64,000 nucleotides of DNA, from the IMG/VR virus record IMGVR_UViG_3300048928_000047; one strand, given 5' to 3'. The stretch's first letter is position 1; each line of letters starts with the position of its first letter. Made by a program: the position numbers and the translations under genes. Below are positions 22,856 to 57,544 of this stretch, piece after piece. This DNA is from a virus. The notes below the pieces were generated by a model. It saw only the letters and a program-made list of their open reading frames with translations. It made no database searches and was not told where the DNA came from.

Positions 22856-23053
22856 TTAATCTTTAGGCTTCACAATGCCACGATTCTGTAGCTCCAACTG
22901 AATGGCAATAGAACGATCTCGTGCAGCCATGTACTCTGTGAAAGTCTCCTGGAGATGATCACCAGCCACATCGCGCAGCTTCAAGAGCTTCTCGTCTGTC
23001 ACCTGAGTCAGGTCATCAAACACCTCTACATCATTTGTCCCATTCGTTTGCAT
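22856..23053 (-). CDS. hypothetical protein
   Basis: Start placed at MQTNG, which has an AAGGAGG SD 6 nt upstream. 65 aa. Confidence 0.45.
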   Translation of the reverse strand: MQTNGTNDVEVFDDLTQVTDEKLLKLRDVAGDHLQETFTEYMAARDRSIAIQLELQNRGIVKPKD

Positions 23054-23258
23054 CAACAACCTCCTTAATGGCTACGGCACAATCTTTACAGATACAATTG
23101 CCTTTGTTCTTTTCAAGTTCAATATACGGGGAATTATCTTCCCGACGAGAGTCATAGATTACACTGTTGAAACACACAACGCAAACATTTTTCAAGATTG
23201 TGTACTTCTCAATACGTTTCTTAGTGCGAAAATTAACTTCGATGATATCTGCCATCAA
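23031..23258 (-). CDS. small zinc-ribbon protein
   Basis: 75 aa with CVVC...CxCKDC pairs. ATGA-type overlap with the upstream gene. Confidence 0.5.
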   Translation of the reverse strand: MMADIIEVNFRTKKRIEKYTILKNVCVVCFNSVIYDSRREDNSPYIELEKNKGNCICKDCAVAIKEVVDANEWDK

Positions 23259-23536
23259 TGTACTGCTCCCAGGATGTTATTCTGTGCCATCGTAGCACTG
23301 AGTTCTACCATGTCGTGAGATCGTGAAAAACGTTCCCACACCTCTGCATCAACCTTGAGAGCTATGCAAGGATAGATAGAGTCGTGAATAACCTCTACGT
23401 GAAACACGTTTGGGTTCTCATCTTCCTCTACGAACATCTGACCATAACTTTCGAGGTGTTTACGGATGTACAGAGCATCCTCCTCAGTGAGTCCAATCAT
23501 CAAATAACTCGCCACCACTACATGTCTATCCTGCAT
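23255..23536 (-). CDS. hypothetical protein
   Basis: 93-aa ORF. AAGGAGAAAA SD. Confidence 0.5.
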   Translation of the reverse strand: MQDRHVVVASYLMIGLTEEDALYIRKHLESYGQMFVEEDENPNVFHVEVIHDSIYPCIALKVDAEVWERFSRSHDMVELSATMAQNNILGAVH

Positions 23537-23545
23537 ATTTTCTCC

Positions 23546-24070
23546 TTAGCTCTTAGGTATATAGAATTGATGTTCCTTGTAACGGTACACCAAGATCATA
23601 TCCTTCTCCCAATGGGTACGGATATTCTTCTTTTTGAAATACTTAGCCCCTTTCGTTACATCTGTTGCATCACGAGCTTCGGGGAAGTTCTTATCAAGGT
23701 AGATTAAGCGATCAGCAATATGCTTTGCCTCCTGCCATCTATCCTTTTCGACGACATTAAATGCGCCTTTATACGTGTATGAGAATTGTCCTGGTTGGAA
23801 GAGAACACCTTTGACGGTCTTAGGGAACTGAGGATCGTTAACACGATTCAGAACAACATTACCGACAGCAGCCATTCCTTTCTTTCCTTGGTTACGGCTC
23901 TCTGCGTACATTGCACAAGCTAAAAGATTTTCTTTCGTATCTCGCTTTGTACACTTGTGGACTACTTTAGCGGTCTTTACGTTTGCAGCTTCGGCAACGC
24001 CGATTACAGGTGTAAATGTAAAAGCAGTTAATGATAGTAACGCAATTGTTACAAAGTTTCGTATCAGCAA
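23546..24070 (-). CDS. SleB/Hydrolase_2-family cell-wall hydrolase with N-terminal signal/anchor
   Basis: CAMYAESRNQGKKGMAAVGNVVLNRVNDPQFPKTVKGVLFQPGQFS is the SleB-family core. No ATG in the N-terminal region. TTG at 24070 has an AGGAGG SD 6 nt upstream and yields MLIRNFVTIALLSLTAFTFTPVIGVAEA. The longer form (to 24130) is also TTG-initiated. Confidence 0.7.
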   Translation of the reverse strand: MLIRNFVTIALLSLTAFTFTPVIGVAEAANVKTAKVVHKCTKRDTKENLLACAMYAESRNQGKKGMAAVGNVVLNRVNDPQFPKTVKGVLFQPGQFSYTYKGAFNVVEKDRWQEAKHIADRLIYLDKNFPEARDATDVTKGAKYFKKKNIRTHWEKDMILVYRYKEHQFYIPKS

Positions 24071-24157
24071 ATTTTGCCTCCTTTTTGTTTTACGAACTAT
24101 TATTCTATCACAGGAGGGAGGATTTTGCAAGAGAAAGGGGCTTTCGCCCCTCTCATG

Positions 24158-24811
24158 TTACAGTGTGAAAGTGGTGGTGAAGTCCACTTTAGCGCCATCT
24201 TCAAGGACGGTGAGCTTGAGGGTGTCGCTCTGAATATTATCCAGAGATTCCAGTTTGACAGTCACACGCTCGTAGGCTGGTTGACCATCTTTCAGGAAAG
24301 TACGCTCTGTGACTACCACCTTGTCTGCTACGATCAGAGTGGCTTTACCGTCATGTTCCAGGTGGTAAGAACTACCGTCTTTATAGTTGACGACAACTAC
24401 GCCACCGCTAACTACCAGATTATCACCCAACACGATTGCCACTGGAGCAGTATTTACACCTACTGCAAGAGTGGTTGAAGATGGTAAACTTTGCAGATAC
24501 TGGAATTCCGACATTGCTGCACTAACCATCTCTTCAAACTCTTCTACTTCGAGAGGATCACGATCACTCCAGTCGTAGTCATCGATCTCGGTGTCACCGT
24601 CTTTGATACCCATATAGTTCCAGTTATCAATTGTGAAACCAGTTTCACCCATCCAAGTATCTTCAAAATTCTCGCAGACGGTGAAATGAATACCCATATC
24701 CCTTACATCCTGGAATAAAGCTGTCGTTTTTCGGCTCTTGGCTGCGTCGTAGTCCACATCAACAACAAAGTCTTCTTCGAACAGGCTACGCAGTTTCTCT
24801 AATGCACTCAT
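24158..24811 (-). CDS. hypothetical acidic protein
   Basis: 217-aa ORF bounded by GC tetraloop hairpins (24131-24154 and 24840-24857). Confidence 0.55.
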   Translation of the reverse strand: MSALEKLRSLFEEDFVVDVDYDAAKSRKTTALFQDVRDMGIHFTVCENFEDTWMGETGFTIDNWNYMGIKDGDTEIDDYDWSDRDPLEVEEFEEMVSAAMSEFQYLQSLPSSTTLAVGVNTAPVAIVLGDNLVVSGGVVVVNYKDGSSYHLEHDGKATLIVADKVVVTERTFLKDGQPAYERVTVKLESLDNIQSDTLKLTVLEDGAKVDFTTTFTL

Positions 24812-24872
24812 TTTATTCTCCTTCTTTAAGTCTCAGTGGGGAGGGCTTGCGCCCTCCGTGGCAGATTAATCC

Positions 24873-25475
24873 TTACGGGCAGTCAAACCAGTTGACGTCA
24901 CCACCGAATGCTACCACCACATCACAGATATCCATACCTGCTTTACCAACACCGTAGGCTTTCAGTTTCCATTCGCCATCTTCACGAACCAGTGAAGCTA
25001 CGTGGCAGATGGTGTTACCAGCAACTTCCGGTGCCAGGAAGTCGAAGTCGAGGATCTCAACATTACGTTCTGCGTCGAAGATTTTCAGCATACCTTCGGA
25101 GGCATGACCGAGGCGCTTCTGACCAGTTTCATCGTCGATGGTGATCACGAATGCAATTTCATCTGCATTCTGGGAGATTTTACTCAGAGTAACATCGATC
25201 TGCTCCAGGTTGCCAGTACCATCACGAACATCTTCGCCAGCGAAGGTTGAACGCTCTGGATCAACTTTGTTTGCATAGCAAACCAGGTGACGGGCAGACA
25301 GCATTTCTGGATTACCAGAGGCATTATGACGGCACACCAGTGCGCTTACGTCCAGATCCAGCTTAGTGGATGATTTCCAGGAGAATTCCAGACGAATCTC
25401 TTTCAGCAGAGGTGCGATCTTTTTCAGGGAGATCTTTTCGGTGGAACCTTTTTTCAGGGAAATTTTCTCAGACAT
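24873..25475 (-). CDS. terD: TerD-family protein
   Basis: Start moved to MSEKISLKKG (AAGGAGAA SD). Motifs ISLKKG..ISLKK, LDLDVSALV, FAGEDVRDGTG and EIAFVITIDD follow the TerD-domain pattern. Confidence 0.85.
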   Translation of the reverse strand: MSEKISLKKGSTEKISLKKIAPLLKEIRLEFSWKSSTKLDLDVSALVCRHNASGNPEMLSARHLVCYANKVDPERSTFAGEDVRDGTGNLEQIDVTLSKISQNADEIAFVITIDDETGQKRLGHASEGMLKIFDAERNVEILDFDFLAPEVAGNTICHVASLVREDGEWKLKAYGVGKAGMDICDVVVAFGGDVNWFDCP

Positions 25476-25507
25476 GTATGTTCTCCTTCTTTCTGTTTTC
25501 ATTTACT

Positions 25508-25570
25508 GGGGAAGAACCGCTCTTCCCCCTTTGATGTAATCTATTCTACGTATTTCTTAGGGTAAGTCAA
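25508..25570 (-). promoter_or_regulatory. sigma70-type promoter plus leader hairpin upstream of terD
   Basis: Minus strand: TTGACT (25570-25565), 16-nt spacer, TAGAAT (25548-25543). Then ...ATCAAA plus hairpin GGGGAAGA-GCGGT-TCTTCCCC (25528-25508), then the SD. Confidence 0.6.
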
Positions 25571-25579
25571 CAACTATTT

Positions 25580-26374
25580 TTAGTTTTTTGCACCTACTTT
25601 CTCAACCCACTGACCAAACTCATCAGACAGCAGTTTGTCATAGAGTTGTTCGTCAGACAGATCCAGGTCATCAATGCCGATGAAAGCTACGTTATCGTAT
25701 TCATTTGCCAGAGCTTTTAGGAAGCTAAAGCGAGCATTACCAACCCCAACCATGAACCAGTAGATAGGTTTACCTTTGTTACGGTTCAGTACAGCGCGTA
25801 CTGCGGATTCGTCATTGTTCTCACCATCAGTCTGGAAGAACACCATTGCAGGTGTGGTATCCACAGACGCAGAGGTATCTGGTACTTGTTCTGTGATCGT
25901 TTTCTTGACAGTAACGGTTTCAGTTTTACCTGTCAGTTTGGCAAAGAAGCCGCTCACCGGACGCTGCTCTTGTACCTCAACTTCACGAGATACAGTTTTC
26001 ATTGGCGTAGAGCCAAAGTATTCGTCGTAGATCGCCTGGATAACTGGTGCGTAGCTTGTGCCGCCATTGATGGATACGTTACGCATACATTTACCTACGT
26101 AGTCGTCGTACACGTCAGCGGTAGCTGGCGGCAGTTCAGAAGAGTAGTTGTTGAACGCCCACATATCGATCTGCTGGTTATCGTCAAACTGCATACCGAA
26201 CGGCAGGAGTTTACCGACGAAATCACTCACAGTACCGTTACGGTACAGGCTGTGCATACTACCAGAGATATCCAGTGCAGATGCTACGCGCAGTACGATC
26301 TGTGCAATCTTTTTCTTTTTCAGGCTGATTACCAGTTGTTCCTGACGTTTTACCAGACTAATTTTCTCGCTCAT
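25580..26374 (-). CDS. von Willebrand factor A (vWA) domain protein, TerY/TerF-like
   Basis: MIDAS motif ALDISGSM, later FFQTDGENND. N-terminus MSEKISL mirrors the TerD start. Adjacent to terD. Confidence 0.7.
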   Translation of the reverse strand: MSEKISLVKRQEQLVISLKKKKIAQIVLRVASALDISGSMHSLYRNGTVSDFVGKLLPFGMQFDDNQQIDMWAFNNYSSELPPATADVYDDYVGKCMRNVSINGGTSYAPVIQAIYDEYFGSTPMKTVSREVEVQEQRPVSGFFAKLTGKTETVTVKKTITEQVPDTSASVDTTPAMVFFQTDGENNDESAVRAVLNRNKGKPIYWFMVGVGNARFSFLKALANEYDNVAFIGIDDLDLSDEQLYDKLLSDEFGQWVEKVGAKN

Positions 26375-26577
26375 AATTTTTCCTCCATTAAGTTTTTAAG
26401 TGCGATGGTTGTTTCAGATTGGGTTTCTTCCTCGGAACCATCTGGATTTGCATGATAGTGCAAGAAATCTTCTGGGTCGTACCAATCGGATTCTTGACCT
26501 TGCTTCCAACCATCTATGAATGCGTCTTCGATGATAGTCTTTAACTCAAGACGTGTCAAGGTGATTTTATCAGTCAT
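26371..26577 (-). CDS. hypothetical small acidic protein
   Basis: 68 aa. 4-nt overlap downstream and 8-nt overlap upstream. Confidence 0.5.
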   Translation of the reverse strand: MTDKITLTRLELKTIIEDAFIDGWKQGQESDWYDPEDFLHYHANPDGSEEETQSETTIALKNLMEEKL

Positions 26578-26797
26578 CTTGTACCTCCGCTAACTGTTCT
26601 CGATAGTGATCATCATCCCATCCACCTGGTGGATAAAAGTCATCACCTACTTCGATGATTGTTCCACCTTCGCTCATTGCTAACTCTTCACAGAAGTAGT
26701 CATGGTAAGCGATCTTCTCCGCAAAGTCAACATCTTTGAAGAAACGAATAGTGGCGCTACCATCACCGCAATCGGCAATTACGAGAGCAATCTTCAT
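26570..26797 (-). CDS. hypothetical small acidic protein
   Basis: 75 aa. Translationally coupled on both sides. Confidence 0.5.
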   Translation of the reverse strand: MKIALVIADCGDGSATIRFFKDVDFAEKIAYHDYFCEELAMSEGGTIIEVGDDFYPPGGWDDDHYREQLAEVQDD

Positions 26798-27000
26798 ACC
26801 TCAAACTCCTTGACCAACTCAAGTTCATCAAAGCGTTCTGCTGAACACTGGTCATAACCGTAAAGTTCACGACCAACAACCAGCACAGGCTCCAGATTAG
26901 GGAAAGATAAAATATGTTCACTGTTCCCTGCAAACTGCTCTTCATCATCATAACGAACAGCTACATACCCATCTTCCAGTTTATAAATACGAATTCGCAT
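26794..27000 (-). CDS. hypothetical small protein
   Basis: 68 aa. AAGGAGAAAA SD. ATGA overlap downstream. Confidence 0.5.
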   Translation of the reverse strand: MRIRIYKLEDGYVAVRYDDEEQFAGNSEHILSFPNLEPVLVVGRELYGYDQCSAERFDELELVKEFEV

Positions 27001-27009
27001 GTTTTCTCC

Positions 27010-28113
27010 TTACACTAAGCCAGATTTGACTTTTTGGATCATCCCATCTTCCAGGGATTGAACCTCGTTGATGTAATCAATACGAGCGGCGCGAGCCTCG
27101 GTATTGATGCGGTTGGTTTCTTCCAGCATTTTAACCAGGTTTTCCTGATCTTTACGCAGGGTTTCAATGTCCAGAATCTGACGGTTAGACAGAGCCGTAG
27201 CATTGATAATGTTTTGTGCAGCCAAATCGCTCCCCATTTGAATTGCAGTGTTGAATTCATCCAACACATTAGCCTGACTTTTACCAGCTTCCGCCTGGCG
27301 TAAGCTCTCAATATACATTGAGAAGTTTGCAGAATAAGCCGGAATAACGTTGTTCACGATGTTACGAGCAGATCGCATAAGCATTTCGCTAACCTTAATC
27401 ATACTGTTCACTCGTGGTCCCATTTGCACACACAGCAAACGTAGTGCTTTAAGGTCAGCAATACGGATCTCCAGAATATCCAGGGTATCGCGGATCTCGG
27501 TACGAGTTTCCACTTCTTCCTCTGGTGTATTCAAGAAACGTGCTTCCTCTTTTGCGTAGGTGTCCGTCAGGAGTTCCACATCACGGTTAAGGCTCATGGC
27601 GTACTGAGCAATAGCGGATTTCAGTTTTTCCAGATAGACAAGTGAATCTTCCTCTTTACGCACATCACCTTCCAGTTCTTTCACCAGAACATCAATACGG
27701 TTGTTAACGTTGTCGTACTCAGCAAACAGATCTTCTTTCAGCCCCATGATCTTCTTGATGAATTTACCAACGCCTTTTGACTGCTTGATTGAAGAAGGAT
27801 CAAGCTGTTTAGCCTGTTTAATCAGGGCAGTGAGGCGTTCATTCATCTCCCCACCTTGATTACCACGTTGGTGTTTCAGGACTTCGCTGTTGAGGCTACG
27901 CAGAGTTAATCCTGCCTCAGCGCCCACTCCGTCAATCTCCTTGCGGCTCATTGCAGGAAGAGCAGGTACAGGTTTAACAACTGCCGGAGCAAACACAGGG
28001 CTTGCTTCCAGCACACTTGGAGCCAGTGCAGAGCGTTTGTCATCAACAGTGGTCAGAACACTTGCACCATGCTTATTGCCTTTCACGGCATTCAGGAATG
28101 GACTCTTAGACAT
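27010..28113 (-). CDS. telA: TelA-like (toxic anion resistance family) protein
   Basis: 367-aa all-helical protein. The segment LDPSSIKQSKGVGKFIKKIMGLKEDLFAEYDNVNNRIDVLVKELE...DSLVYLEKL fits the TelA/KlaB pattern. Lies between the TerD/vWA genes and TerC. Confidence 0.65.
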   Translation of the reverse strand: MSKSPFLNAVKGNKHGASVLTTVDDKRSALAPSVLEASPVFAPAVVKPVPALPAMSRKEIDGVGAEAGLTLRSLNSEVLKHQRGNQGGEMNERLTALIKQAKQLDPSSIKQSKGVGKFIKKIMGLKEDLFAEYDNVNNRIDVLVKELEGDVRKEEDSLVYLEKLKSAIAQYAMSLNRDVELLTDTYAKEEARFLNTPEEEVETRTEIRDTLDILEIRIADLKALRLLCVQMGPRVNSMIKVSEMLMRSARNIVNNVIPAYSANFSMYIESLRQAEAGKSQANVLDEFNTAIQMGSDLAAQNIINATALSNRQILDIETLRKDQENLVKMLEETNRINTEARAARIDYINEVQSLEDGMIQKVKSGLV

Positions 28114-28123
28114 TTCTTTCTCC

Positions 28124-28687
28124 TTATACAGTCATGTTAATGGAGGATGTGTACATTTCTGCACCCTCAGCTTCGAGGATCACAGTCCCCAAGTTGGTGA
28201 GTGACATATCCAGTTCAAATTGATGGTTAACACCACGGACTTTGACACGCGCAACATCGTCATTAGGTACGGTGATTGCTTGACGATAGTTTACAGTATC
28301 TTTCCAGTTATCTTCCATGATAAAGACAACCTTCTCAGCAGTTACTTCGATGGAAATAAAGTCTTTCACTGTATATTGCTCTCCACTTGTGAAAGTAATT
28401 GTCGCTTTATTTACAGTTGGGGCTTTGTTTCGTTCACCCTTTTTACGTTTGGCACGTTTTGGTTTTTCTGTTTGAAGAACTGGGTACATTGGCGTAATAA
28501 CGGCTTCACCAGTTTTCACCATATCAGCACCAGAAAATTGAGTAGTTCCTGTTGTTACACCCTTAAACACCCAATCACCGTTGTTCTCAATGCGAACAAG
28601 TCTGAAAAGATTGCTGTTATCTTCCAGAACACTCTCCGCGAAACCTTCTCCGGTCAGGTGGTACACATTATTTACGATAAGTTGCAT
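28124..28687 (-). CDS. hypothetical protein
   Basis: Start moved to MQLIVNNVYHL (AAAGGAGAGAA SD), downstream of the promoter cassette at 28721-28754. Confidence 0.5.
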   Translation of the reverse strand: MQLIVNNVYHLTGEGFAESVLEDNSNLFRLVRIENNGDWVFKGVTTGTTQFSGADMVKTGEAVITPMYPVLQTEKPKRAKRKKGERNKAPTVNKATITFTSGEQYTVKDFISIEVTAEKVVFIMEDNWKDTVNYRQAITVPNDDVARVKVRGVNHQFELDMSLTNLGTVILEAEGAEMYTSSINMTV

Positions 28688-28720
28688 GTTCTCTCCTTTG
28701 TTATTGGTTTCTCTTGACGA

Positions 28721-28754
28721 GAGGGACTTTATTATCCCTCTAAGCAAAAGTCAA
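28721..28754 (-). promoter_or_regulatory. class-II promoter cassette (GTTGACTTT; -10 inside a hairpin loop)
   Basis: Minus strand: TTGACT (28754-28749), 17-nt spacer, TAAAGT (28731-28726). Hairpin GAGGGA/TCCCTC encloses the -10. Followed by CAAGAGAAACC. Confidence 0.55.
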
Positions 28755-28756
28755 CC

Positions 28757-28996
28757 TTACTGCGAAATGATTTCTTTGATTGCTGGTTCACGTCCTGCTA
28801 ACGTACCGTCAAAATCAATAAGGAAGCTGAATTCAACGCCACTTTCGTGCTGAAACAGCAGTCGGTCATTCGGATCGTAGACGTAGATACCGTCTTCGTC
28901 AACCAGGACGATTTCCAGTTGATCTTTATCTCCGTGTGCCGAGAAGTCTGTGTCAACCATTACTGCGATATCACCTTTCTTTGCATTCTTAAACAT
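28757..28996 (-). CDS. hypothetical protein
   Basis: 79-aa ORF. AAGGAGG SD. Confidence 0.5.
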   Translation of the reverse strand: MFKNAKKGDIAVMVDTDFSAHGDKDQLEIVLVDEDGIYVYDPNDRLLFQHESGVEFSFLIDFDGTLAGREPAIKEIISQ

Positions 28997-29008
28997 GTTG
29001 CCTCCTTA

Positions 29009-29572
29009 TTAGCGACGACGACTTGAGCTAAAGCTGCTACGACTTGAGGAGAAGCTCTTGCTGCTGCTATAACTACGAGATGGTTTACTGTAGCTACTCA
29101 TTGGGCTGGAGTAGGATTTCTTAGCCGAGTATGCGCTGTTAGTGCTCATAGTCGGACGGGACTGCGTTTGATACACCTGCTTACCACTGTTGTTGTAATA
29201 ACGAGTGGTGTTGCTGGAATAACTGCTACCACTACGAGGCTGCGCTACGGTGTTGTTATTGATGATCGTAGTGCGGCTGGAGTTATTGCTGTAGCCACCA
29301 CCGTTACCACCGCCGCTCATCATATGCCCCAGGATCATACCAGTGGCAAAGTCGCCAACACCGGAATCATGACCACCGCTTTGAACGATAACCGGAGCAG
29401 GAGCCGCCTGAACAACTTGTGGCGCTGGTTGGTTAACGTATTGCTCATCCACCATCTGCTGCTGAGGAGCAGGGACGTATTGAGTTTGTTTTGGAACATC
29501 ATCATCACAACCTACCAGCATACTTGCACCCAGAACGATCACAGCACCCAGTACCAGTTTCATATTAGTCAT
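29009..29572 (-). CDS. Ser/Tyr-rich lipoprotein with glycine-zipper segment
   Basis: Signal peptide plus lipobox MKLVLGAVIVLGASMLVGC. Glycine zipper GDFATGMILGHMMSGGGNGGG. C-terminal low-complexity SYSSxxS tail ending RRR. Confidence 0.6.
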   Translation of the reverse strand: MTNMKLVLGAVIVLGASMLVGCDDDVPKQTQYVPAPQQQMVDEQYVNQPAPQVVQAAPAPVIVQSGGHDSGVGDFATGMILGHMMSGGGNGGGYSNNSSRTTIINNNTVAQPRSGSSYSSNTTRYYNNSGKQVYQTQSRPTMSTNSAYSAKKSYSSPMSSYSKPSRSYSSSKSFSSSRSSFSSSRRR

Positions 29573-29762
29573 GTTTGTTCTCCTCGCTTGAAATTTTACA
29601 CTTAGTTTTATCGGTCGAGTAGCAATATGTTTGCTTCCCGTCTTTCATGACTTCAATAGTACCTCCGTTCAGTACCATTGTCAACACCGTGAACAAAAAT
29701 AAAAATCCGATTGCGTAACAAATATTTTCAAACACGATCCAGATCACTTTTAAGATTTTCAT
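29565..29762 (-). CDS. small membrane protein
   Basis: 65 aa. One strong TM helix (ICYAIGFLFLFTVLTMVL). 8-nt overlap with the next gene. Confidence 0.5.
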   Translation of the reverse strand: MKILKVIWIVFENICYAIGFLFLFTVLTMVLNGGTIEVMKDGKQTYCYSTDKTKCKISSEENKHD

Positions 29763-29769
29763 ATTTACC

Positions 29770-29946
29770 TCAATTTAAGAATGAAAGGTTCTGTGTGGAT
29801 TCGATTAATCGAATGCTGTACTCAGAAGGATCGGAAAACTCACTCAACAGCATCTCCCTCGCCTCCGTGTAAGTCTTGGCTCTGACTACCGTAATCTCAG
29901 AGATAAATTTAGAACCACACGTAACTAAAAACAAATAATTAATCAT
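29770..29946 (-). CDS. hypothetical small protein
   Basis: Start moved to MINYLFL (GGGAGAG SD). 58 aa. Confidence 0.4.
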   Translation of the reverse strand: MINYLFLVTCGSKFISEITVVRAKTYTEAREMLLSEFSDPSEYSIRLIESTQNLSFLN

Positions 29947-29962
29947 TACTCTCCCTCTATAC

Positions 29963-29988
29963 AAAAGCCTCCCGAAGGAGGCTCTTTT
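29963..29988 (-). terminator. terminator AGCCTCC-(4)-GGAGGCT flanked by A/T runs
   Basis: 7-bp stem with tetraloop and flanking AAAA / CTTTT, 3 nt after the terC stop. Confidence 0.65.
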
Positions 29989-29990
29989 GA

Positions 29991-30974
29991 TTAAGCTGTT
30001 GCTTCGTCTTCTTTCTCAGGGAAGACCAGACTTGCCAGAACACCAAGTGCCAGAGTACCCAGTACGATATACAGACTAACGTTAGCTGAGATATCGTGTG
30101 GCAGGAACGCCCACTTAGCATGTAACGTTTCACCGAACGGGTGGTAAATCAGTTTAGCACCAACAAACACCAGGACCACCGCCACTGCTTTCTCCAGGTG
30201 AACCAGATACTTAACTGCAACACTCAGCACGAAGAACAGAGCACGTAAACCCAGGATTGCGAACAGCATCGCAGAGTAAACCAGCAGAGGTTCTTGTGTC
30301 ACACCGATCACCGCAGGTACAGAGTCGAAGGAGAAGATTACGTCAGTAAACTCTACCACGAACACACACAGCAGGGCTGGAGTTGCATATTTAATACCAT
30401 TTTTAATCGTGATGAACTTCTCGCCATCAAGAGCCGGATGAACCGGAAGGATCTTACCAACCAGACGGGTAGCCCAGTGTTTGGAATAATCTACATCCTC
30501 TTCATCGTCATCACCGCCTTTGATGATAGCCATTGCAGACCATGCAACAATCAAGCCGAACAACACTTGTACAGACCAATGCAGGTTGAACAGTGCAGTA
30601 CCTGCTGCTACGAAGATACCACGGAAGACAATTGCACCTGCGATACCCCAAAGCAGAATCTTATGCTGCAAGTGTGTCGATTTGATACCGAAACTTGCGA
30701 AGATTGCCATGAACACCATCAGGTTATCCACCGACAAGGATTTCTCTAATACATACCCGCTTAGGAAGAGAGAAGCAAACTCTTTACCATACTCTACCCA
30801 AATGAAACCGTAGTACGCAAAGGCCAGGGCAATCCAGAATGCTGACCACGCCAGCGCACTTTTAATACCGATCTCTTTATTCTCCTTATGACCGAAGAAG
30901 TCCACTACGATTGACAGTACCAGTACACCAACCAGCACTGCGATATCCAGCAGTGGGAATCCGAAATGAGTCAT
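29991..30974 (-). CDS. terC: TerC-family integral membrane protein
   Basis: Multi-pass membrane protein. KSLSVDNLMVFMAIFASFGIKSTHLQHKILLWGIAGAIVFRGIF is the TerC signature region. Confidence 0.85.
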   Translation of the reverse strand: MTHFGFPLLDIAVLVGVLVLSIVVDFFGHKENKEIGIKSALAWSAFWIALAFAYYGFIWVEYGKEFASLFLSGYVLEKSLSVDNLMVFMAIFASFGIKSTHLQHKILLWGIAGAIVFRGIFVAAGTALFNLHWSVQVLFGLIVAWSAMAIIKGGDDDEEDVDYSKHWATRLVGKILPVHPALDGEKFITIKNGIKYATPALLCVFVVEFTDVIFSFDSVPAVIGVTQEPLLVYSAMLFAILGLRALFFVLSVAVKYLVHLEKAVAVVLVFVGAKLIYHPFGETLHAKWAFLPHDISANVSLYIVLGTLALGVLASLVFPEKEDEATA

Positions 30975-30991
30975 GTTTTTCTCCTCTTTTG

Positions 30992-31052
30992 AAGAGGGAG
31001 CCTATCTCCCTCTTGATAACTTATACTTTACTCTCTTTTCGCACAGAGTCAA
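30992..31052 (-). promoter_or_regulatory. sigma70-type promoter plus leader hairpin upstream of terC
   Basis: Minus strand: TTGACT (31052-31047), 16-nt spacer, TAAAGT (31030-31025). Then ATCAAG plus hairpin AGAGGGAG-(5)-CTCCCTCT (31012-30992), then the GAGGAGAAAAA SD. Confidence 0.6.
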
Positions 31053-31055
31053 GCA

Positions 31056-31271
31056 TTATTTTGAACTTTCTTTATCGAAGCAATACATTCCAACCGAACC
31101 GCTCGAATTGCTTACAATGTAACAGAACTTGTGGTTCTGGTCATCCTGCATGATGAAGATCTTATTAACAGCATCCCATCCATCGTAAACTTGATCCACT
31201 TTCACCTCATCGGCGTTAGCTGTACCCATAGTACCGAGGACGAGAGCCAGAGTCAACAGAATTCTTTTCAT
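31056..31271 (-). CDS. small secreted protein
   Basis: Start moved to MKRILLTLALVLGTMGTANA (signal peptide). ATGA overlap with the upstream gene. Confidence 0.5.
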   Translation of the reverse strand: MKRILLTLALVLGTMGTANADEVKVDQVYDGWDAVNKIFIMQDDQNHKFCYIVSNSSGSVGMYCFDKESSK

Positions 31272-31471
31272 TTTCGACCTCGGAATATTCCACGGATCAC
31301 TGTCAGGATGAACGCAACACAAATCACACTCAGCAGAGTGACAGGAATCTCCCAGTTAGGATGACCAACTAAGGCAACAATGTAGTTGTATGCCAGCATC
31401 ACCAACCAAGTTGGAATCAGGCAGACCAGAAATATGACTACCAGGAATAGCAGTCCTACAATAAACTCCAT
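31268..31471 (-). CDS. small two-TM membrane protein
   Basis: 67 aa with two hydrophobic helices. AAGGAGAAAA SD. Confidence 0.5.
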   Translation of the reverse strand: MEFIVGLLFLVVIFLVCLIPTWLVMLAYNYIVALVGHPNWEIPVTLLSVICVAFILTVIRGIFRGRK

Positions 31472-31481
31472 AATTTTCTCC

Positions 31482-31970
31482 TTACTTTAATTGATAAACA
31501 ATCACCTCTAAGCCTCTCAGCATCAGAGTTTCTTTGATCATGGCCTCAACAACCGACCACTTCCCTCCAGCCAAACCGCAACCAATCAGGGGTAAACCCA
31601 CACGTCTTGCGCCATTGGCTACCAGGTCTGCTCCCATCGCATCCAGTGCATCGTAGATGGCATTGTAGTTCAGGTCACGAATGCCTTGATCTCGCTTACT
31701 GTACCCATACTGTCCGTACAGGTTATAAACAGTCAGGAAACCATCCTCAACTACAGCTTTACTGTAGCCACCAAGCTTATACTTGTCGCCTTTAATGGTT
31801 GCACAATCTGCGGCGTACACATCAGGCCATTTAGCCTTAATCTTGGGAGCAATACCGCTCCCCATTGTGTTCCAGCAGTTGCAACAGTGTGCAATCGCAT
31901 CTACTTCACCTTCGGAAGCTGCAACAAGAAGATTTCCTTCTCGGTATTGAATAGGTTCAATCTGCTGCAT
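31482..31970 (-). CDS. macro domain protein (ADP-ribose binding/hydrolase fold)
   Basis: DAIAHCCNCWNTMGSGIAPKIKAKWP and VGLPLIGCGLAGGKW match the two glycine-rich macro-domain loops. Confidence 0.8.
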   Translation of the reverse strand: MQQIEPIQYREGNLLVAASEGEVDAIAHCCNCWNTMGSGIAPKIKAKWPDVYAADCATIKGDKYKLGGYSKAVVEDGFLTVYNLYGQYGYSKRDQGIRDLNYNAIYDALDAMGADLVANGARRVGLPLIGCGLAGGKWSVVEAMIKETLMLRGLEVIVYQLK

Positions 31971-32520
31971 GTTTATCCAACCATTTTTCAGCTTTAACTT
32001 TCAGCAGATCGTTCAAATGACCAACTACCTCGTCTGCCAGTTCCTGACCATCAAGACCACTGGTTGACTTTTTGTGCAGTAGCGCCAAATCCAAGGCGCA
32101 GATAATAACATCAGCACATTCACCCAAAAGGTCTTCTTTCTGACGATCAGGATTGACCAGCCAATCTGCACACTCGCCAGTTTCAGATGCAAGGTATGCC
32201 ATTACTTGGAATACGTCACGAGGTTGATTAACCTTATGGCTTGCATGTACCGCAGTAGAGATATCCAGAGTCATTTCAGGGTAGTCTAAGTGCTTAGCCT
32301 CATCCTCTACCCAGAACATATCATGATGACCACCAACAATGGTAAAAGTAGGATATTCTGTACCGGAGTCAAGCTCTATGGCTTTTACTCTTACTTTACC
32401 ATTAGCTGTGGCTTCCACCAGTTCCAGCACACGGATGTGATAACCCATACCGAATCCAGCGCCATTACTCTTAGCGATGCGCCCGATATCTTTTTGGGAA
32501 ACACTTGTGATCTTTTCCAT
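31957..32520 (-). CDS. protein with C-terminal MazG-like NTP pyrophosphohydrolase domain
   Basis: ASETGECADWL ... LLGECADVIICALDLALL resemble the paired EExxE/D helices of the all-alpha NTP-PPase fold. ATG at 32520 follows an AAGGAGG SD. 14-nt overlap with the macro gene. Confidence 0.6.
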   Translation of the reverse strand: MEKITSVSQKDIGRIAKSNGAGFGMGYHIRVLELVEATANGKVRVKAIELDSGTEYPTFTIVGGHHDMFWVEDEAKHLDYPEMTLDISTAVHASHKVNQPRDVFQVMAYLASETGECADWLVNPDRQKEDLLGECADVIICALDLALLHKKSTSGLDGQELADEVVGHLNDLLKVKAEKWLDKHAAD

Positions 32521-32530
32521 CAACCCCTCC

Positions 32531-33364
32531 TTACTTATTTAAGATATTGCTTTCAAAGAAATGCTCCAAGAACTCAAAGTTCTCTTCATATTTCTCAATG
32601 CTGTTGTAACCTTCTGCCAGGCAACCAAAGTAGAGCGCTTCTACATAAGACAGAGGAAGCTGGCTGAGTGCCACCTTAAAGGTGATTTCACTCTGGCTCA
32701 TCAGGTACTTGATCGGACGCACCAGGCACTTAGCATCAGGTTCATCCTTGATCATCTGCACAAATGCAGAGACACTGTTAATGTCGCTGAAATTCAGCGC
32801 CGCTTCTGTGTTTGCCTCATTGCCGTTATACTTGGCAAAGTACAGGAAAAATGTATCGTTAGTTACATTCTCTGCATCCAGGATCTCAATCAGCTTGTCC
32901 TCATGGGTTCCGGTGATATTCACGTCATCAATGAAGATCAGATTTTTGTTACCCCAAAAGTCTTTATTGATAGAGAACGTGTCGCCATCGATCAGAGCCT
33001 TACGATCTTCCTTACTCAGGAAGCCGTAGTCATTAATGTAACTCACTTTACGGTGGATGATATCCCACTCAATTGGGTAAGCACCACCCATACGGTTCAT
33101 CAGATAATTGAGATGGTCTACAAAATGCTCTGACAACACCGTAGCTGCGTTTTTAACGTAGTTGTAAGGCGAAGGTATTACCACGAACTGTTCGTTCAAC
33201 AGACGCAGTTTGTGGGCTTCATAGAAGCTCTCTGCCAGTTTACGTCCCATACGCTTCGCAGCTTGATTACTACCGAATTTCAGACGTGAGTAGTCGGCAG
33301 TATTAAAACAAGCAACAGTCAGGTCGCTAAAGACATGGGCGAAGTGTTGTTTCTGGTTACGCAT
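32531..33364 (-). CDS. type I phosphoribosyltransferase (PRTase)
   Basis: PRPP-binding loop NLIFIDDVNITGTHEDK (four hydrophobic residues, DD, xx, TG, xT). 277 aa. Confidence 0.7.
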   Translation of the reverse strand: MRNQKQHFAHVFSDLTVACFNTADYSRLKFGSNQAAKRMGRKLAESFYEAHKLRLLNEQFVVIPSPYNYVKNAATVLSEHFVDHLNYLMNRMGGAYPIEWDIIHRKVSYINDYGFLSKEDRKALIDGDTFSINKDFWGNKNLIFIDDVNITGTHEDKLIEILDAENVTNDTFFLYFAKYNGNEANTEAALNFSDINSVSAFVQMIKDEPDAKCLVRPIKYLMSQSEITFKVALSQLPLSYVEALYFGCLAEGYNSIEKYEENFEFLEHFFESNILNK

Positions 33365-34016
33365 TGATGATTTCTCCTTTTTGCAGTTTCTCTAACAGGT
33401 CTTCTGGGTTCTTAATGTGACAGAAATTAAATCCTGCGTCAACACATCTCCCATCAAAAATTTCACTATCTCCGATGTGCAATACTTCGTCGGGTTGAAG
33501 CTGGCGATTGTAAGATCGAAGAACTGTCTGGTCAAAGAAGCGTTTATCAGGTTTACACATTTCCCAGTTATCAGAAAAGTGCATGAAAGCCCAGAAAGGC
33601 ATACGATCAAAACCGACAGCCTGCGCCAGAATATATCCAGGAATGAAGTTGGTATTGCTCTTAATGCTCAACTCATAATCCATCGACAGATTAATCAGTC
33701 GGTCAACCAAGTCCATACTCAGGTGTGGTGGATTCACCAGGAAAGCCATCTCAGAATACTTTTTCATCTGCTCTGCTGATTTTCGATCTACACCCAAGTG
33801 TCTACCCAACGCCCACCATGCGTGATATTGATCACCACACAACATGTGTTCAGCATTCATATCCAACACACGTTTGACGTGTGCATAGGCAGCATCTGCC
33901 TCTTCTGGAGCTACTCCGCCAAAGTAAGAAATAATTTCTGTACGCTCGTAAGCATAACGAGGATTAGCAGTGATCAGGGTATTCCATACGTCAAAAGAGA
34001 TGTGTTTGATTGTCAT
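33357..34016 (-). CDS. HAD-superfamily hydrolase
   Basis: Start moved to MTIKHISFDVWNTLI (motif I of the FDxxGTL type). Motif IV VLHIGDSEIFDGRC. 8-nt overlap with the PRTase gene. Confidence 0.6.
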   Translation of the reverse strand: MTIKHISFDVWNTLITANPRYAYERTEIISYFGGVAPEEADAAYAHVKRVLDMNAEHMLCGDQYHAWWALGRHLGVDRKSAEQMKKYSEMAFLVNPPHLSMDLVDRLINLSMDYELSIKSNTNFIPGYILAQAVGFDRMPFWAFMHFSDNWEMCKPDKRFFDQTVLRSYNRQLQPDEVLHIGDSEIFDGRCVDAGFNFCHIKNPEDLLEKLQKGEIINA

Positions 34017-34017
34017 A

Positions 34018-34623
34018 TTAAGCCCACCATGCGTCAAGGTTTAAGTTACTGTCTACTATCACTTGTTCTACGTGATAGCTCTTCATTTCGATTCCATTTA
34101 ACAGAAGCATACCATACACCTCATTGAAACGCAACTTATCTTCTGCGGAATAAAGACGAGCATTATAGAAGCGATAATCCACCTCTTCGGCATTGGAAGA
34201 GATACGAAAGAAGCCAGTGTCAATTTCCGGCGCACTTGCCGGAGTCTTGATATGCACTTCCCCGTAATGTTCTTTGCTCAGATCCATAAACATTACACAC
34301 GCAACGTGCCGGAACATCTGCTCCAGCTTATAACGTACTACTTTGAATCCAGCCTCTTCGAGTTTTGCTACACAATCCAACATAAGATCTGTCTCAATAC
34401 CCGCCTGGTATTTAGTGAGCATACGGTCACGCTGTGACTGAGTATCACGGTGCAGATCGATTGTGGTACATTTTGCACCAATCAATTTTGCTGCCTCCAT
34501 GAGTTGTTCACTATTTACATCTGCCAGGGTGAGATGAAAGTGCGCTTTCCACACCTTCTCCACTGGAACACCAAGAGGTTCACCGTTGGTGCGTGGCAGG
34601 TTGACGATCAGCTTATGTTTCAT
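34018..34623 (-). CDS. hypothetical protein (one HxTx motif; possible degenerate 2H-phosphoesterase, unproven)
   Basis: 201 aa. AHFHLTL fits HxTx, but the second candidate VHIKT does not. First gene of the overlapping operon ending with the macro gene. Confidence 0.5.
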   Translation of the reverse strand: MKHKLIVNLPRTNGEPLGVPVEKVWKAHFHLTLADVNSEQLMEAAKLIGAKCTTIDLHRDTQSQRDRMLTKYQAGIETDLMLDCVAKLEEAGFKVVRYKLEQMFRHVACVMFMDLSKEHYGEVHIKTPASAPEIDTGFFRISSNAEEVDYRFYNARLYSAEDKLRFNEVYGMLLLNGIEMKSYHVEQVIVDSNLNLDAWWA

Positions 34624-34633
34624 TGTTTCCTCC

Positions 34634-34840
34634 TTAGAAAGGTGCGCGTTCTAACTCATACGGTTCAATGCCAACAATATTAGCAATGTCTCTGTCAGAA
34701 AGCAACTCTTTTCTTTGTAGGATTTCTACGAGAGTACCGAGCATTTCACGAGTATCTCGATCACTCTTCTCTACAAAACCCTTTGCACTATCAATTTGAT
34801 CTTTATAGAAATAAAACTGAGCCATAAATCCTCCAAACAA
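34634..34840 (-). CDS. hypothetical small protein
   Basis: 68 aa. GGAGGA SD. Preceded by a hairpin at 34842-34861. Confidence 0.5.
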   Translation of the reverse strand: MFGGFMAQFYFYKDQIDSAKGFVEKSDRDTREMLGTLVEILQRKELLSDRDIANIVGIEPYELERAPF

Positions 34841-34841
34841 G

Positions 34842-34861
34842 AAAGGGGCTTTCGCCCCTTT
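34842..34861 (-). terminator. hairpin AAAGGGGC-(4)-GCCCCTTT
   Basis: 8-bp stem with tetraloop, 4 nt after the AAA+ gene stop. Confidence 0.55.
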
Positions 34862-34864
34862 GAA

Positions 34865-36025
34865 TTAGTAGTTGTAACCTGCGCCTGAGAAGGCGTAATC
34901 CATGTAGTTGAGGGTTTCTTTCTGTTTCACCTCAATCTCAATGATGTTATCACCCTGAGCGAACACGAAGTGATAACCATCTCCACCCATGCTCTTAATG
35001 CTCTTCTCATCGTAGGCGATGAAGATCTTGTCGCAATCGTAGTACCAATCGCCGTCAGAGTCCTGCTGGTCAAGGGTAACAACACCTTTCATGTTAGGCA
35101 GACGTTCAGTACCTTCTTTGTGGTCTACGTTGATCTGGAACTTAGCGCCTTGGAACAGGGACTGTGCTGACATTCCAGACAGATCGAATCCACGAACATC
35201 TTGCAGACGATCAACACCATTCACTTTCAGAGTTTTAATCTCTTTGGCAGAACGGCTACCTTCATTGATGGAGATACCCATCAGGTTCAGTGCATCAGAG
35301 AACTTATCGTCAGGATAACGGTTCAGTTCTTCTACCAGCGACTGAATTACATCGAAGTTCAGATCTGCTGACAGGTTGTACAGAGTTTCGAAGTCTGCAA
35401 CGAACGCTTTGTTGACCAGGTTTTTAGCCAGGTAGTCATCCAGCGTAGACTTAGGCAGTTTCTTATAGCTAAAGCTATAGAAGATACGGCTTGGTCGGTT
35501 ACGCAGGAATTCAGAAACATAACCATCGTTTTTGGTCAGAACGAACAGTTTATTGTAACCGCCCACACCATCCAGCAGAGTAAGCAGACCGTCCTGATGT
35601 TCTTTCTCAGCATACAGCTTATCGAATTCATCCACCATCACCATGATCGGCTGTTTGATTTTCGACATGAAGTTGATGAACGCTTCACCGTTGAACGGGC
35701 TACCGATGGAGATGGTAGGAATGCCCTGTTTACGCAGTGCCACTGACAGCATTTTCGCTTGCAGGGTTTTACCACTACCCTTAGTTCCTTCCAGGAGAAC
35801 ACCAGTGTTCTTACCATCACGGCTCAGGAACGTCTTGATGATACGCTCGGATTTGTCATCTGTGTCGCCGTAGGTTACGGCTGGCACTTCCATATCGTTT
35901 TTAGGGTACAGATAAAACGCACCTTCCATTGTAACGCCGATACCATAAGTACCCGCTGGAATTACGTCGATATCAACACCGGATTTCTGACGCAGGAAGA
36001 TTTGGCTACCGAATTGTGTGAACAT
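34865..36025 (-). CDS. AAA+ ATPase (paralogue A)
   Basis: Start moved to MFTQFG (AAGGAGAAA SD). Walker A GTKGSGKT, Walker B IMVMVDEFDK. Long collinear similarity to 52474-53598 (shared NTGVLL.GTKGSGKT, LLTLLDG, NRPSRIFYSF, FDVIQ..VEELN blocks). Confidence 0.8.
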   Translation of the reverse strand: MFTQFGSQIFLRQKSGVDIDVIPAGTYGIGVTMEGAFYLYPKNDMEVPAVTYGDTDDKSERIIKTFLSRDGKNTGVLLEGTKGSGKTLQAKMLSVALRKQGIPTISIGSPFNGEAFINFMSKIKQPIMVMVDEFDKLYAEKEHQDGLLTLLDGVGGYNKLFVLTKNDGYVSEFLRNRPSRIFYSFSYKKLPKSTLDDYLAKNLVNKAFVADFETLYNLSADLNFDVIQSLVEELNRYPDDKFSDALNLMGISINEGSRSAKEIKTLKVNGVDRLQDVRGFDLSGMSAQSLFQGAKFQINVDHKEGTERLPNMKGVVTLDQQDSDGDWYYDCDKIFIAYDEKSIKSMGGDGYHFVFAQGDNIIEIEVKQKETLNYMDYAFSGAGYNY

Positions 36026-36052
36026 GTATTTCTCCTTCTTTCTCTTTAAAGT

Positions 36053-36089
36053 GTAGGGGAAGTATATCAACCTCCCCTGTGAAAATCAA
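36053..36089 (-). promoter_or_regulatory. class-II-like promoter cassette upstream of AAA+ paralogue A
   Basis: Minus strand: TTGATT (36089-36084), 17-nt spacer, TATACT (36066-36061). AGGGGA/TCCCCT hairpin spans the -10. Followed by AAAGAGAAAG. Confidence 0.5.
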
Positions 36090-36092
36090 CTC

Positions 36093-36968
36093 TTATTTTT
36101 TAAAAATTCGACCCAGTTGTTTACCGCCATTGATCACCGTACCATCTTCTGCCTGGTAATCCCAGGAGCCGTCAATGTTACGTAGGAAGCTTGAGCGATT
36201 ACCCACATCGTGGATTACTACAGCCATCAGCAGTTTTTCATCGATCTCAGTTTCGATGCTCTCTTTAATACCTTCGGTGACTTCCCGCTCATGTTGGATG
36301 TACACCGTACCATCGATCACCTGCACACTGCGCACGTTTTTAAACGTGTACACTTGCTGCGTGGTGTAAAGTACACGGACGATAGTTTTAGCCACGGTTG
36401 GTTTCTGACGACTACGCTTACGATAGCGTGGACGTGGATTCAGCGCAGGTGCTGGCTCGTCATCCAAGAGTCGATAAGCTACAATATCTCGGTCATTGCC
36501 GTAATGATTCCAACGGAATTCTCCCACCCTACCATCTAATACATCCCCTTCGCGAACTACGATCTTCACTTTGCGATCTTTGTCACCTACGGCAGATTTA
36601 CCATCGTGATAGATAAACCCTTCTGGAATGCCGTTAATCTGTTCTTCCTCAAGGAAACGCTGTTTGAACAGGCATTCAAACGTTTGGTAATCCACGATCA
36701 CTCTACCATGTGCATCCCCTTCGTCATTTCCATTCAATGCGGCTTCTTCGTCAAACCACATGATGTTAGTTTCTGGGGAACTAATGTAGCAGAGCAGATG
36801 ATCAGCATCGTCCCAATAGTTAATCCCTTTTGTCTTGGCAACTTTAATCATCCATTCGATATCTGAATGTTGTGCCTCTTTGAAAGGAAACGCCACTTCT
36901 TTCAGAGTTAGTTTTGGTTTGTCGCTATTACGTTCGCGTGTACTGCTATCCCATTCTGCATCACTCAT
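36093..36968 (-). CDS. hypothetical protein
   Basis: 291-aa ORF. ATGA overlap with the upstream micro-ORF. Confidence 0.55.
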   Translation of the reverse strand: MSDAEWDSSTRERNSDKPKLTLKEVAFPFKEAQHSDIEWMIKVAKTKGINYWDDADHLLCYISSPETNIMWFDEEAALNGNDEGDAHGRVIVDYQTFECLFKQRFLEEEQINGIPEGFIYHDGKSAVGDKDRKVKIVVREGDVLDGRVGEFRWNHYGNDRDIVAYRLLDDEPAPALNPRPRYRKRSRQKPTVAKTIVRVLYTTQQVYTFKNVRSVQVIDGTVYIQHEREVTEGIKESIETEIDEKLLMAVVIHDVGNRSSFLRNIDGSWDYQAEDGTVINGGKQLGRIFKK

Positions 36969-37825: not shown

Positions 37826-37835
37826 TTTGTTCTCC

Positions 37836-56441: not shown

Positions 56442-56462
56442 AAATTAAAGAGAGATAACCAA

Positions 56463-57537: not shown

Positions 57538-57544
57538 TAACGTA

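Follow-up and report, generated by a model that had tools for sequence, protein, structure and literature searches.

Why should a lytic phage carry genes of the tellurite-resistance (Ter) system beside a set of nucleotide-related enzymes? The question is raised by positions 24873-34623 of the virus record IMGVR_UViG_3300048928_000047 (IMG/VR), a stretch of 64,000 nucleotides (64 kb) that was analysed at its full length and is called the window below. The region is an unbroken series of minus-strand genes encoding TerD, von Willebrand factor A (vWA), TelA and TerC proteins, followed upstream by an operon centred on a HAD-fold protein and a phosphoribosyltransferase (PRTase) of family PRTase_3. 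An initial annotation, made from the sequence alone, had described it as a stripped-down Ter island fused to a nucleotide-metabolite operon. The HAD–PRTase_3 pair was found here to be an invariant unit separable from the Ter genes, although Ter families were its most frequent partners.

The Ter system is widespread and has been connected with the fitness of Klebsiella and with resistance to phages, colicins and tellurite; the literature covered here offered neither a mechanism nor a metabolite for it. Comparative genomics by Anantharaman, Iyer and Aravind in 2012 reportedly tied Ter genes to PRTase and HAD genes within a 'nucleoside-like metabolite' module. Ter clusters have also been documented in phages. 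Phages phi92 and vKMB37 were described with 'alx-like ter cluster genes', their function given as unknown (PMC11162368), and further clusters were reported from phiKp34 (PMC8386662) and PhiPsa374 (PMC9796965). Iyer et al. 2021 described phage Ter systems with PRTase and HAD genes, including that of phage ME3, assigned signal synthesis to PRTase and HAD, and proposed a role of the systems in superinfection exclusion (PMC7824862). The phage Ter cluster was thus already known in phi92 and its relatives, and the novelty implied by the initial annotation does not extend to it. What is new is the invariance of the HAD–PRTase_3 unit, a PRTase family unlike that of enterobacterial ter clusters, a tryptophan in HAD motif I, the accessory status of two enzyme-operon genes (MazG-like and a 201-amino acid (aa) protein) and the occurrence of NUDIX and HD fusions in the 201-aa family.

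Composition of the block and its relation to known Ter clusters

The principal genes of the block are listed here with their best family matches and E-values.

24873-25475, minus strand: TerD-domain protein, 200 aa (PF02342, 1.5e-28)
25580-26374, minus strand: vWA protein of the TerF C-terminal type (PF10138, vWA-TerF-like, 1.9e-39)
27010-28113, minus strand: TelA-like helical protein (PF05816, 1.7e-33; phrog_5890, 1e-114)
29991-30974, minus strand: TerC/Alx-family membrane protein (PF03741, 5.2e-41)
31482-31970, minus strand: stand-alone macro domain, 162 aa, of the TARG1 / SCO6735 / DarG-like clade (PF01661, 5.4e-6, above the gathering score)
31957-32520, minus strand: MazG-like all-alpha NTP pyrophosphohydrolase domain in the C-terminal half, the N-terminal 80 aa being unmatched (phrog_1247, 2.3e-22)
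32531-33364, minus strand: PRTase_3, a ComF-like phosphoribosyltransferase (PF15610, 3.4e-40)
33357-34016, minus strand: HAD-fold protein, partner upstream of PRTase_3 (motif I FDVWNT)
34018-34623, minus strand: 201-aa protein with a tandem alpha+beta fold, first gene of the enzyme operon (phrog_22504)

TerD, TelA, TerC, vWA, macro and PRTase had all been called initially, and each was confirmed by a significant Pfam match. The TerD start was corrected to 25475 (M10, after AGGAG) instead of 25502, and the protein aligned to Klebsiella TerD (2KXT) at 7.5e-15. The vWA protein displayed the metal-ion-dependent adhesion site (MIDAS) motif DxSxS as ALDISGS. TerC scored 324 bits (8e-97) against TIGR03718, the Alx subfamily, for which the cutoff is 246. 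No relative of TelA was found in the PDB.

By sequence, the phage is a member of the subfamily Stephanstirmvirinae and a lytic myovirus of the E. coli/Klebsiella type. The block best matched Klebsiella phages KP13-26, KP2025 and phi1_175008 (82-85 % nucleotide identity over 46-65 % of its length), followed by Phapecoctavirus and Justusliebigvirus phages (~77 %); the records of phi1_175008 and phAPEC8 carry the label Stephanstirmvirinae. Synteny was kept in every relative fetched, so that the genes are linked rather than scattered there. TerD, vWA, TelA, TerC, macro, PRTase_3, HAD, a lipoprotein and two transmembrane mini-proteins formed a core of constant relative order in the Stephanstirmvirinae loci. 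Its sole gaps were TerD in L003, truncated by the contig edge, and the lipoprotein in L009, where tblastn gave no match. TerD was 85-95 % identical to its relatives at the aa level. The ter cluster of the phi92/phAPEC8 type displayed the same genes in the same order (TerD, vWA, TelA, TerC, macro, PRTase_3, HAD) at 63-95 % aa identity. The window phage nonetheless represents a distinct lineage, no phage record matching it at more than ~85 % nucleotide identity or along more than 65 % of the block. Comparison with phAPEC8 or a phi92-like contig gave saturated proportions of synonymous differences (pS 0.54-0.87) and low proportions of non-synonymous ones (pN 0.08-0.36) for every gene tested, which argues for purifying selection on all of them.

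A mosaic ancestry was apparent within 29991-33364 (against loci L007 and L025). TerC was 87 % identical to that of phAPEC8 and 71 % to that of the phi92-like contig, while PRTase_3 displayed 79 % identity to the phi92-like contig and only 63 % to phAPEC8. The general setting was a replication and nucleotide-metabolism gene block: ribonucleotide reductase genes adjoin in phAPEC8, and DNA polymerase and primase genes lie nearby in the Klebsiella phages. Glycosyltransferase genes were encountered a few kb downstream of the block in relatives.

The canonical plasmid ter cluster (pSS332-218k) was used as a query set, consisting of terZABCDEF, an ATP-grasp protein, two PRTases (StiP and a 377-aa protein), a HAD-like protein, an HpcH lyase, DUF4236 and TerW. 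Searches of the window by tblastn (E<=0.01) returned no TerB, ATP-grasp, HpcH lyase, StiP, 377-aa PRTase or TerW, which bears out the initial remark that TerB, ATP-grasp and the TIM-barrel lyase are absent. Counterparts were limited to TerC (48 % aa identity), TerD/E/Z (27-30 %) and the C-terminal vWA half of TerF (25.6 %, rounded 26 %). Relative to the IncHI2-type plasmid operon terZABCDEF, the phage block is devoid of TerZ, TerA, TerB, TerE, TerW, ATP-grasp, the StiP-type and 377-aa PRTases, lyase and DUF4236. Conversely, it includes TelA, which is not part of the enterobacterial operon, and gene orders are unrelated. The phage PRTase and HAD displayed no detectable homology to their plasmid ter counterparts at the same threshold. 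Since the PRTase belongs to PF15610 and lacks detectable similarity to enterobacterial ter PRTases, this is not the enterobacterial cluster in reduced form, and the description of the island as a stripped-down version had to be abandoned. A recent capture of terC from E. coli was rejected as well, since under 20 % of the gene could be aligned to plasmid terC (67-70 % nucleotide identity) and chromosomal alx gave no match.

With the Ter system as previously delineated (Anantharaman 2012; Iyer 2021) the block shares a core of TerC, TerD, vWA and TelA linked to PRTase and HAD, and, with the latter study, the phage setting. It differs from the system sensu Anantharaman 2012 by TerB, ATP-grasp and the HpcH (TIM-barrel) lyase, none of which was detected in the window. 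TerB homologues were present in 30 phage records, mostly from Erwinia and Pseudomonas phages plus P1, P7 and D6, with no Stephanstirmvirinae among the matches listed. Acinetobacter phage ME3, whose system was considered 'relatively complete' by Iyer et al. 2021 (PMC7824862), harbors PRTases of the enterobacterial type and not PRTase_3. The ME3 locus (L032, 9142-17468) comprised StiP-like and 377-aa PRTases, HAD, TerD, TerC, vWA and a macro gene annotated as 'Appr-1-p processing'. A macro gene was therefore encountered beside Ter genes in two unrelated phage lineages, ME3 and the group of the window phage.

The HAD–PRTase_3 pair and its companions

PRTase_3 displayed an intact phosphoribosyl pyrophosphate (PRPP) loop, IFIDDVNITGTHE, in which an acidic pair is followed by TGxT as in type I phosphoribosyltransferases. 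D146, D147, T151, G152 and T153 were invariant in 18 homologues, and a weak match to the loop of HGPRT was all that the PDB yielded.

The start of the HAD-fold protein was corrected and most likely lies at ~34016. Its Pfam score was below threshold (21.5 vs 26.4 bits), and the fold, as initially called, was retained on the basis of phrog_14393 ('hydrolase', 1.3e-83) and PDB entry 2om6 (3e-5). D16 (the nucleophile), S127/N128, K162 and G189 were invariant, D190 was nearly so, and motifs II-IV were present. The position two residues beyond the nucleophile, which holds the general-acid aspartate of phosphatases, was occupied by tryptophan in 14 of the 15 homologues and by tyrosine in the remaining one, so that the DxD signature of phosphatases is missing; the uncharacterised entry 2om6 has the FDVWNT motif too. 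With this substitution, to treat the protein as a phosphatase is an uncertain assumption.

PRTase_3 counted 340 homologues in the protein collection and was found in 157 phage records, whose members included, besides Stephanstirmvirinae, phages of Rhizobium, Brevundimonas and Caulobacter. Searching genome contigs with the single protein gave no PRTase_3 locus, and an alignment-based rerun gave four. HAD lay directly upstream of PRTase_3 in 21 of the 22 fetched loci, mostly overlapping it, and this included T4-like jumbo phages and bacterial metagenome-assembled genomes (MAGs). Outside the subfamily, 113 open reading frames (ORFs) flanked the pair in 11 loci, and their commonest Pfam families were TerD (7), TelA (3), vWA-TerF (3) and TerC (3). 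Ter genes occurred within 10 kb of the pair in five loci (L012, L014, L016, L017 and L024) and their order differed. The proposed linkage of a Ter set to PRTase and HAD in a lytic phage thus recurred beyond the close relatives of the window. A literature search on the family name, PF15610 or PRTase_3, retrieved no paper mentioning either.

Two other surroundings of the pair were observed. It adjoins repA on the conjugative plasmid pRL10 of Rhizobium johnstonii (L026, 8370-9843), where no Ter gene was annotated within 9 kb. In T4-like jumbo phages (L004/L005, 7171-20300) it lies amid RNA-repair and translation genes (RNA ligase, 2H-SAK phosphoesterase, S30AE, CCA enzyme, NUDIX, YqeY and PTH2), with a DUF2828+DUF7788 vWA-like protein directly downstream.

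The macro gene accompanied the pair throughout the subfamily. Its product was closest to BT1257, SCO6735, TARG1 and DarG, with PDB matches to 2fg1 (3.7e-18), 5e3b (1e-17), TARG1 (4e-9) and DarG (8e-6), and it matched the PADLOC DarG model at 5.8e-14. It shares with DarG and TARG1 the ADP-ribosyl hydrolase fold and clade. DarG, however, possesses a C-terminal DarT-binding domain and an adjacent DarT, both missing here; the phage protein scored 48 bits against the DarG equivalog, whose cutoff is 250, and its neighbours were the MazG-like protein and a protein with two transmembrane segments. These matches identify a de-ADP-ribosylase-type domain that is not DarG.

For the putative MazG-like protein, a PHROG match was obtained and no Pfam or PDB match; the ExxE...ExxD motif was seen as ETGE...ECAD. 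The gene was confined to the window, phi1_175008 and one metagenomic contig, being absent from KP2025, the phi92-like phages and phAPEC8. The 201-aa gene, carried by the window phage, was missing from the phi92-like phages. To judge from this distribution, both genes are lineage-specific accessories rather than core members.

No Pfam or NCBIfam family covered the 201-aa ORF. Its own family counted 259 representatives, some of them fused to NUDIX, HD_4 (a RelA/SpoT-type HD domain) or a helix-turn-helix (HTH) domain, and displayed invariant residues alternating along beta-strands (HxHxT, RxKxE, ExH and SxN). Two AlphaFold models reached a pLDDT (predicted local distance difference test) of 82 and 89. 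Against the PDB, Foldseek returned only tandem ferredoxin-like proteins (YkoF, ACT, Dyp/Cld) at template-modelling (TM) scores below 0.3, and a 50-sequence profile returned nothing; against BFVD, only uncharacterised viral proteins from phages and giant viruses (Klosneuvirus, Bodo saltans virus) were matched. The protein is probably nucleotide-related. Neither a 2H phosphoesterase (with HFHLT / EVHIKT as HxT-like motifs) nor a CYTH/TTM tunnel enzyme was supported. A Ter linkage of the family in phage ME3 was also discarded, since ME3_124 has phosphoesterase genes as neighbours and the Ter cluster is ~80 kb away.

Expression signals and candidate roles

Three promoter candidates were considered, together with the hairpins next to them.

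25570-25543, minus strand: sigma70-like promoter TTGACT-16-TAGAAT upstream of terD (hairpin 25528-25508, -14.4 kcal/mol)
28754-28726, minus strand: sigma70-like promoter TTGACT-17-TAAAGT of the unit beginning at 28687 (hairpin 28741-28720, over the -10 hexamer)
31052-31025, minus strand: sigma70-like promoter TTGACT-16-TAAAGT upstream of terC (hairpin 31014-30992)

The terD and terC promoters are intergenic; behind each come 'TCAAG/A' and a GC hairpin, a layout identical to that of five promoter/hairpin units at 56-60 kb. In the phAPEC8 record, a host promoter derived with MEME is annotated ahead of terC. Hairpin 28741-28720 extends across the -10 hexamer and is therefore not a leader hairpin; the combination of promoter and leader hairpin initially assigned to three units was kept for terD and terC, and for the 28687 unit the leader hairpin was dropped. 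No sigma70-like site was detected ahead of the enzyme operon, where only hairpin 34861-34842 was found. An Rfam scan of 23000-38000 (E<=1) gave no riboswitch, and specifically no yybP-ykoY Mn riboswitch. The terC leader is a simple GC hairpin and in this differs from the Alx subfamily of TerC, which is riboswitch-controlled (yybP-ykoY).

HAD and PRTase overlap by 8 nucleotides and MazG and macro by 14, while a single nucleotide separates the 201-aa ORF from HAD. The 'overlapping operon' of the initial annotation is thus tightly packed, with overlaps at these two junctions and not throughout. The block reads as several predicted transcription units. This, together with the absence of Ter genes near the pair in about half of the outside loci and on pRL10, speaks against a fused island.

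Established directly are the identities of the domains, the integrity of their motifs, the packing and synteny of the genes, purifying selection and the recurrent Ter / HAD–PRTase_3 linkage in independent lineages. When the genes are expressed, what each protein does biochemically, whether a metabolite exists and what follows for the physiology of the cell are matters of inference. The reading that we favour, tentatively, is an envelope- and ion-conditioning or exclusion module in which a Ter core acts with a small-molecule enzyme pair. It would be analogous to the resistance to phages and colicins that, along with tellurite resistance, is ascribed to plasmid ter operons in papers quoting Whelan 1995 (PMC8386662, PMC9796965). 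In this view, phages carry a Ter membrane-stress system, and the block would be its form in the Stephanstirmvirinae, made of two separable modules. The first would comprise an Alx-type TerC exporting divalent cations, TerD, the MIDAS vWA protein, the helical TelA and the conserved small envelope proteins, among which the lipoprotein is predicted to stay in the inner membrane. The second would be the tightly packed enzyme operon centred on HAD and PRTase_3, which may make or process a ribose-phosphate-linked small molecule. It is accompanied by the macro protein, to which this lineage would have added a putative MazG-like pyrophosphohydrolase and the 201-aa domain, presumably nucleotide-associated. 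Host RNA polymerase would transcribe the Ter genes early, from the sigma70-type promoters. By conditioning envelope and ion balance, the system would keep the infected cell energised until programmed lysis and protect it from agents that depolarise the membrane, for example superinfecting phages or colicins.

Several observations weigh against this reading. On the Ter side, the acidic Ca2+-loop motif of TerD is degenerate and only partly conserved. On the enzyme side, replacement of the general-acid aspartate makes a 'nucleotide to nucleoside' chemistry of HAD doubtful, and PADLOC matched no defence-system model besides the similarity of macro to DarG and a weak AAA match. The pair had no detectable Ter gene within 10 kb in L004-6, L010/11, L013, L015, L018-20 and L022, which represent about half of the non-Stephanstirmvirinae loci, and it can consequently function independently of Ter proteins. 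The dissociation was also seen from the Ter side. TelA was found in 201 phage records, and those of E. coli, Klebsiella and Salmonella jumbo phages were absent among the PRTase_3 matches listed. In favour of the linkage, on the other hand, Caulobacter and Brevundimonas jumbo phages figured among the matches listed for both proteins, with Brevundimonas phage Papperlapapp as the only common record. Finally, promoter-like matches in the region were not enriched (23 vs 21.6 in shuffles), so that position and conservation are the only grounds for the promoter calls.

Separability gives some room to a second explanation, conceivable if unlikely, according to which two or three unrelated accessory modules lie side by side and the enzyme operon is a nucleotide/ADP-ribose counter-defence hub distinct from the Ter genes. 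The macro protein would there reverse ADP-ribosylation of the DarT or ADP-ribosyltransferase (ART) type, and MazG, PRTase and HAD would destroy or rebuild signalling or depleted nucleotides. The proximity of macro to the TARG1/SCO6735/DarG de-ADP-ribosylases agrees with this, although its score on the DarG equivalog stays far under the cutoff and its context holds nothing related to DarT. Fusions of the 201-aa domain with NUDIX and HD_4 in other proteins fit as well; against it, PADLOC has no model matching PRTase, HAD or MazG. As for the pair, it lies among RNA-repair genes in T4-like jumbo phages and can be found without Ter genes; Ter families are still its top neighbours in independent lineages. 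Separate promoters within the block would suit unrelated modules, and the translational coupling of membrane mini-proteins to the enzyme operon would not.

A third possibility, which we consider distinctly improbable, is pure auxiliary metabolism. TerC/Alx would export or deliver Mn2+, Zn2+ or Ca2+, and TerD, vWA and TelA would buffer cations, so that phage metallo-enzymes and the envelope are kept working without any role in conflicts between phages. TerC exceeds the cutoff of the Alx subfamily, the terC of Klebsiella plays a part in resistance to tellurite and zinc (PMC12054061), tolerance of stress is raised by the ter operon (PMC9933665), and the cluster is located in a replication and nucleotide-metabolism block. 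Metal homeostasis nevertheless leaves the conserved PRTase_3, HAD and macro genes and the lipoprotein unexplained, and it accords poorly with the missing Mn riboswitch and the degenerate Ca2+ loop of TerD.

More speculatively, and with little credence on our part, HAD(Trp)–PRTase_3 might be a self-contained mobile cassette of phages, plasmids and some bacteria that uses PRPP to make a non-canonical ribosyl compound. Where a phage carries Ter genes, this product would be the Ter ligand predicted long ago, either switching on the TerD/vWA/TelA/TerC envelope response or acting as an antimetabolite against competing phages. If so, the Stephanstirmvirinae cluster would be a minimal genetic system for defining the Ter metabolite.

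Very improbable is a service of HAD–PRTase_3 and the MazG-like protein to phage nucleotide or DNA modification with an incidental Ter linkage: the intact PRPP loop, an adjacent enzyme of the dNTP-cleaning type and glycosyltransferase genes a few kb downstream in relatives would fit, but most relatives are devoid of MazG-like, the pair is present on a Rhizobium plasmid and in bacterial MAGs, the family-name literature search found nothing, and we know of no hypermodification pathway that uses the PRTase_3 family.

For several relatives, E. coli K-12 MG1655 served as the host of isolation or propagation. With a compact and conserved version of the system at hand, this makes deletion genetics and metabolomics straightforward. 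The value of the block lies in this compact, genetically tractable handle on Ter chemistry, which offers a practical way to approach an old question and is not in itself a new discovery. Such experiments would be sharpened by three refinements, namely an invariant and separable pair, a different PRTase family and an atypical HAD. For the annotation of phages intended for therapy, 'tellurite resistance' labels in this context should not be taken as transferable resistance determinants.

Small proteins, flanking genes and repeated leader units

Between and around the principal genes, the block harbored small ORFs, several of them with membrane or export features.

26371-27000, minus strand: three small soluble ORFs (68, 75 and 68 aa) between vWA and TelA, partly conserved in relatives
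28124-28687, minus strand: 187-aa protein (phrog_27504 and phrog_27550 only), divergent yet conserved in relatives
28757-29964, minus strand: envelope mini-protein block (79-aa ORF, lipoprotein, 65-aa protein with one transmembrane segment, 64-aa ORF)
29009-29572, minus strand: lipoprotein with an LVGC lipobox, Asp at +2 and a Ser-rich tail
29565-29762, minus strand: 65-aa protein with one transmembrane segment, conserved across the subfamily
31056-31271, minus strand: signal-peptide mini-protein, start corrected to 31271 (MKRILL...ANA|DE)
31268-31471, minus strand: mini-protein with two transmembrane segments, conserved in the subfamily
34634-34861, minus strand: 63-aa ORF with its start at ~34825, preceded by GC hairpin 34861-34842, at the upstream edge of the enzyme operon

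The secreted, lipo- and membrane mini-proteins of the initial annotation were recovered as the lipoprotein, the proteins with one and two transmembrane segments and the signal-peptide protein. The lipoprotein was conserved across the subfamily. The two mini-proteins following macro (s67 with two transmembrane segments and s88 with the signal peptide) are coupled by an ATGA overlap, and the envelope mini-proteins are translationally coupled to the enzyme operon. The 187-aa protein results from correction of the '28747' ORF start to 28687. A family search for the 68-, 75- and 68-aa ORFs between vWA and TelA gave no match. Within 24873-26374 (minus strand), TerD and vWA share an N-terminal peptide, MSEKISLKK... 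and MSEKISLVK..., respectively; in the vWA protein this seems to be a retained first strand of the TerD domain to which vWA is joined in plasmid TerF.

Two genes downstream of terD, 23546-24130 (minus strand) encodes a cell-wall hydrolase of the SleB type whose N-terminal part includes a hydrophobic segment; in relatives it is labelled endolysin or SleB. On the other side, directly adjoining the enzyme operon at its upstream end, 34865-36070 (minus strand) encodes a 401-aa AAA/STAND-like ATPase with weak nSTAND3 and AAA matches. It is kept in the Klebsiella-phage and phi92-like relatives, and its homologue in ME3 adjoins a NUDIX ADP-ribose pyrophosphatase. The ATPase was not counted as a member of the block, its position being occupied by NrdD/NrdG in phAPEC8. 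Neither was a 291-aa ORF that has a homologue in every relative and displays no functional link to the cluster.

A match of the osmY small RNA to the terD hairpin was sub-threshold and was dismissed as chance. At 56380-60100 (plus strand), five near-identical cassettes were found ahead of small genes, each displaying TTGACA-16/17-TAxAxT followed by 'TCAAGG' and the GC hairpin GGCGGCGGGAATGGTTCCCGC; they look like a repeated early promoter/leader unit.

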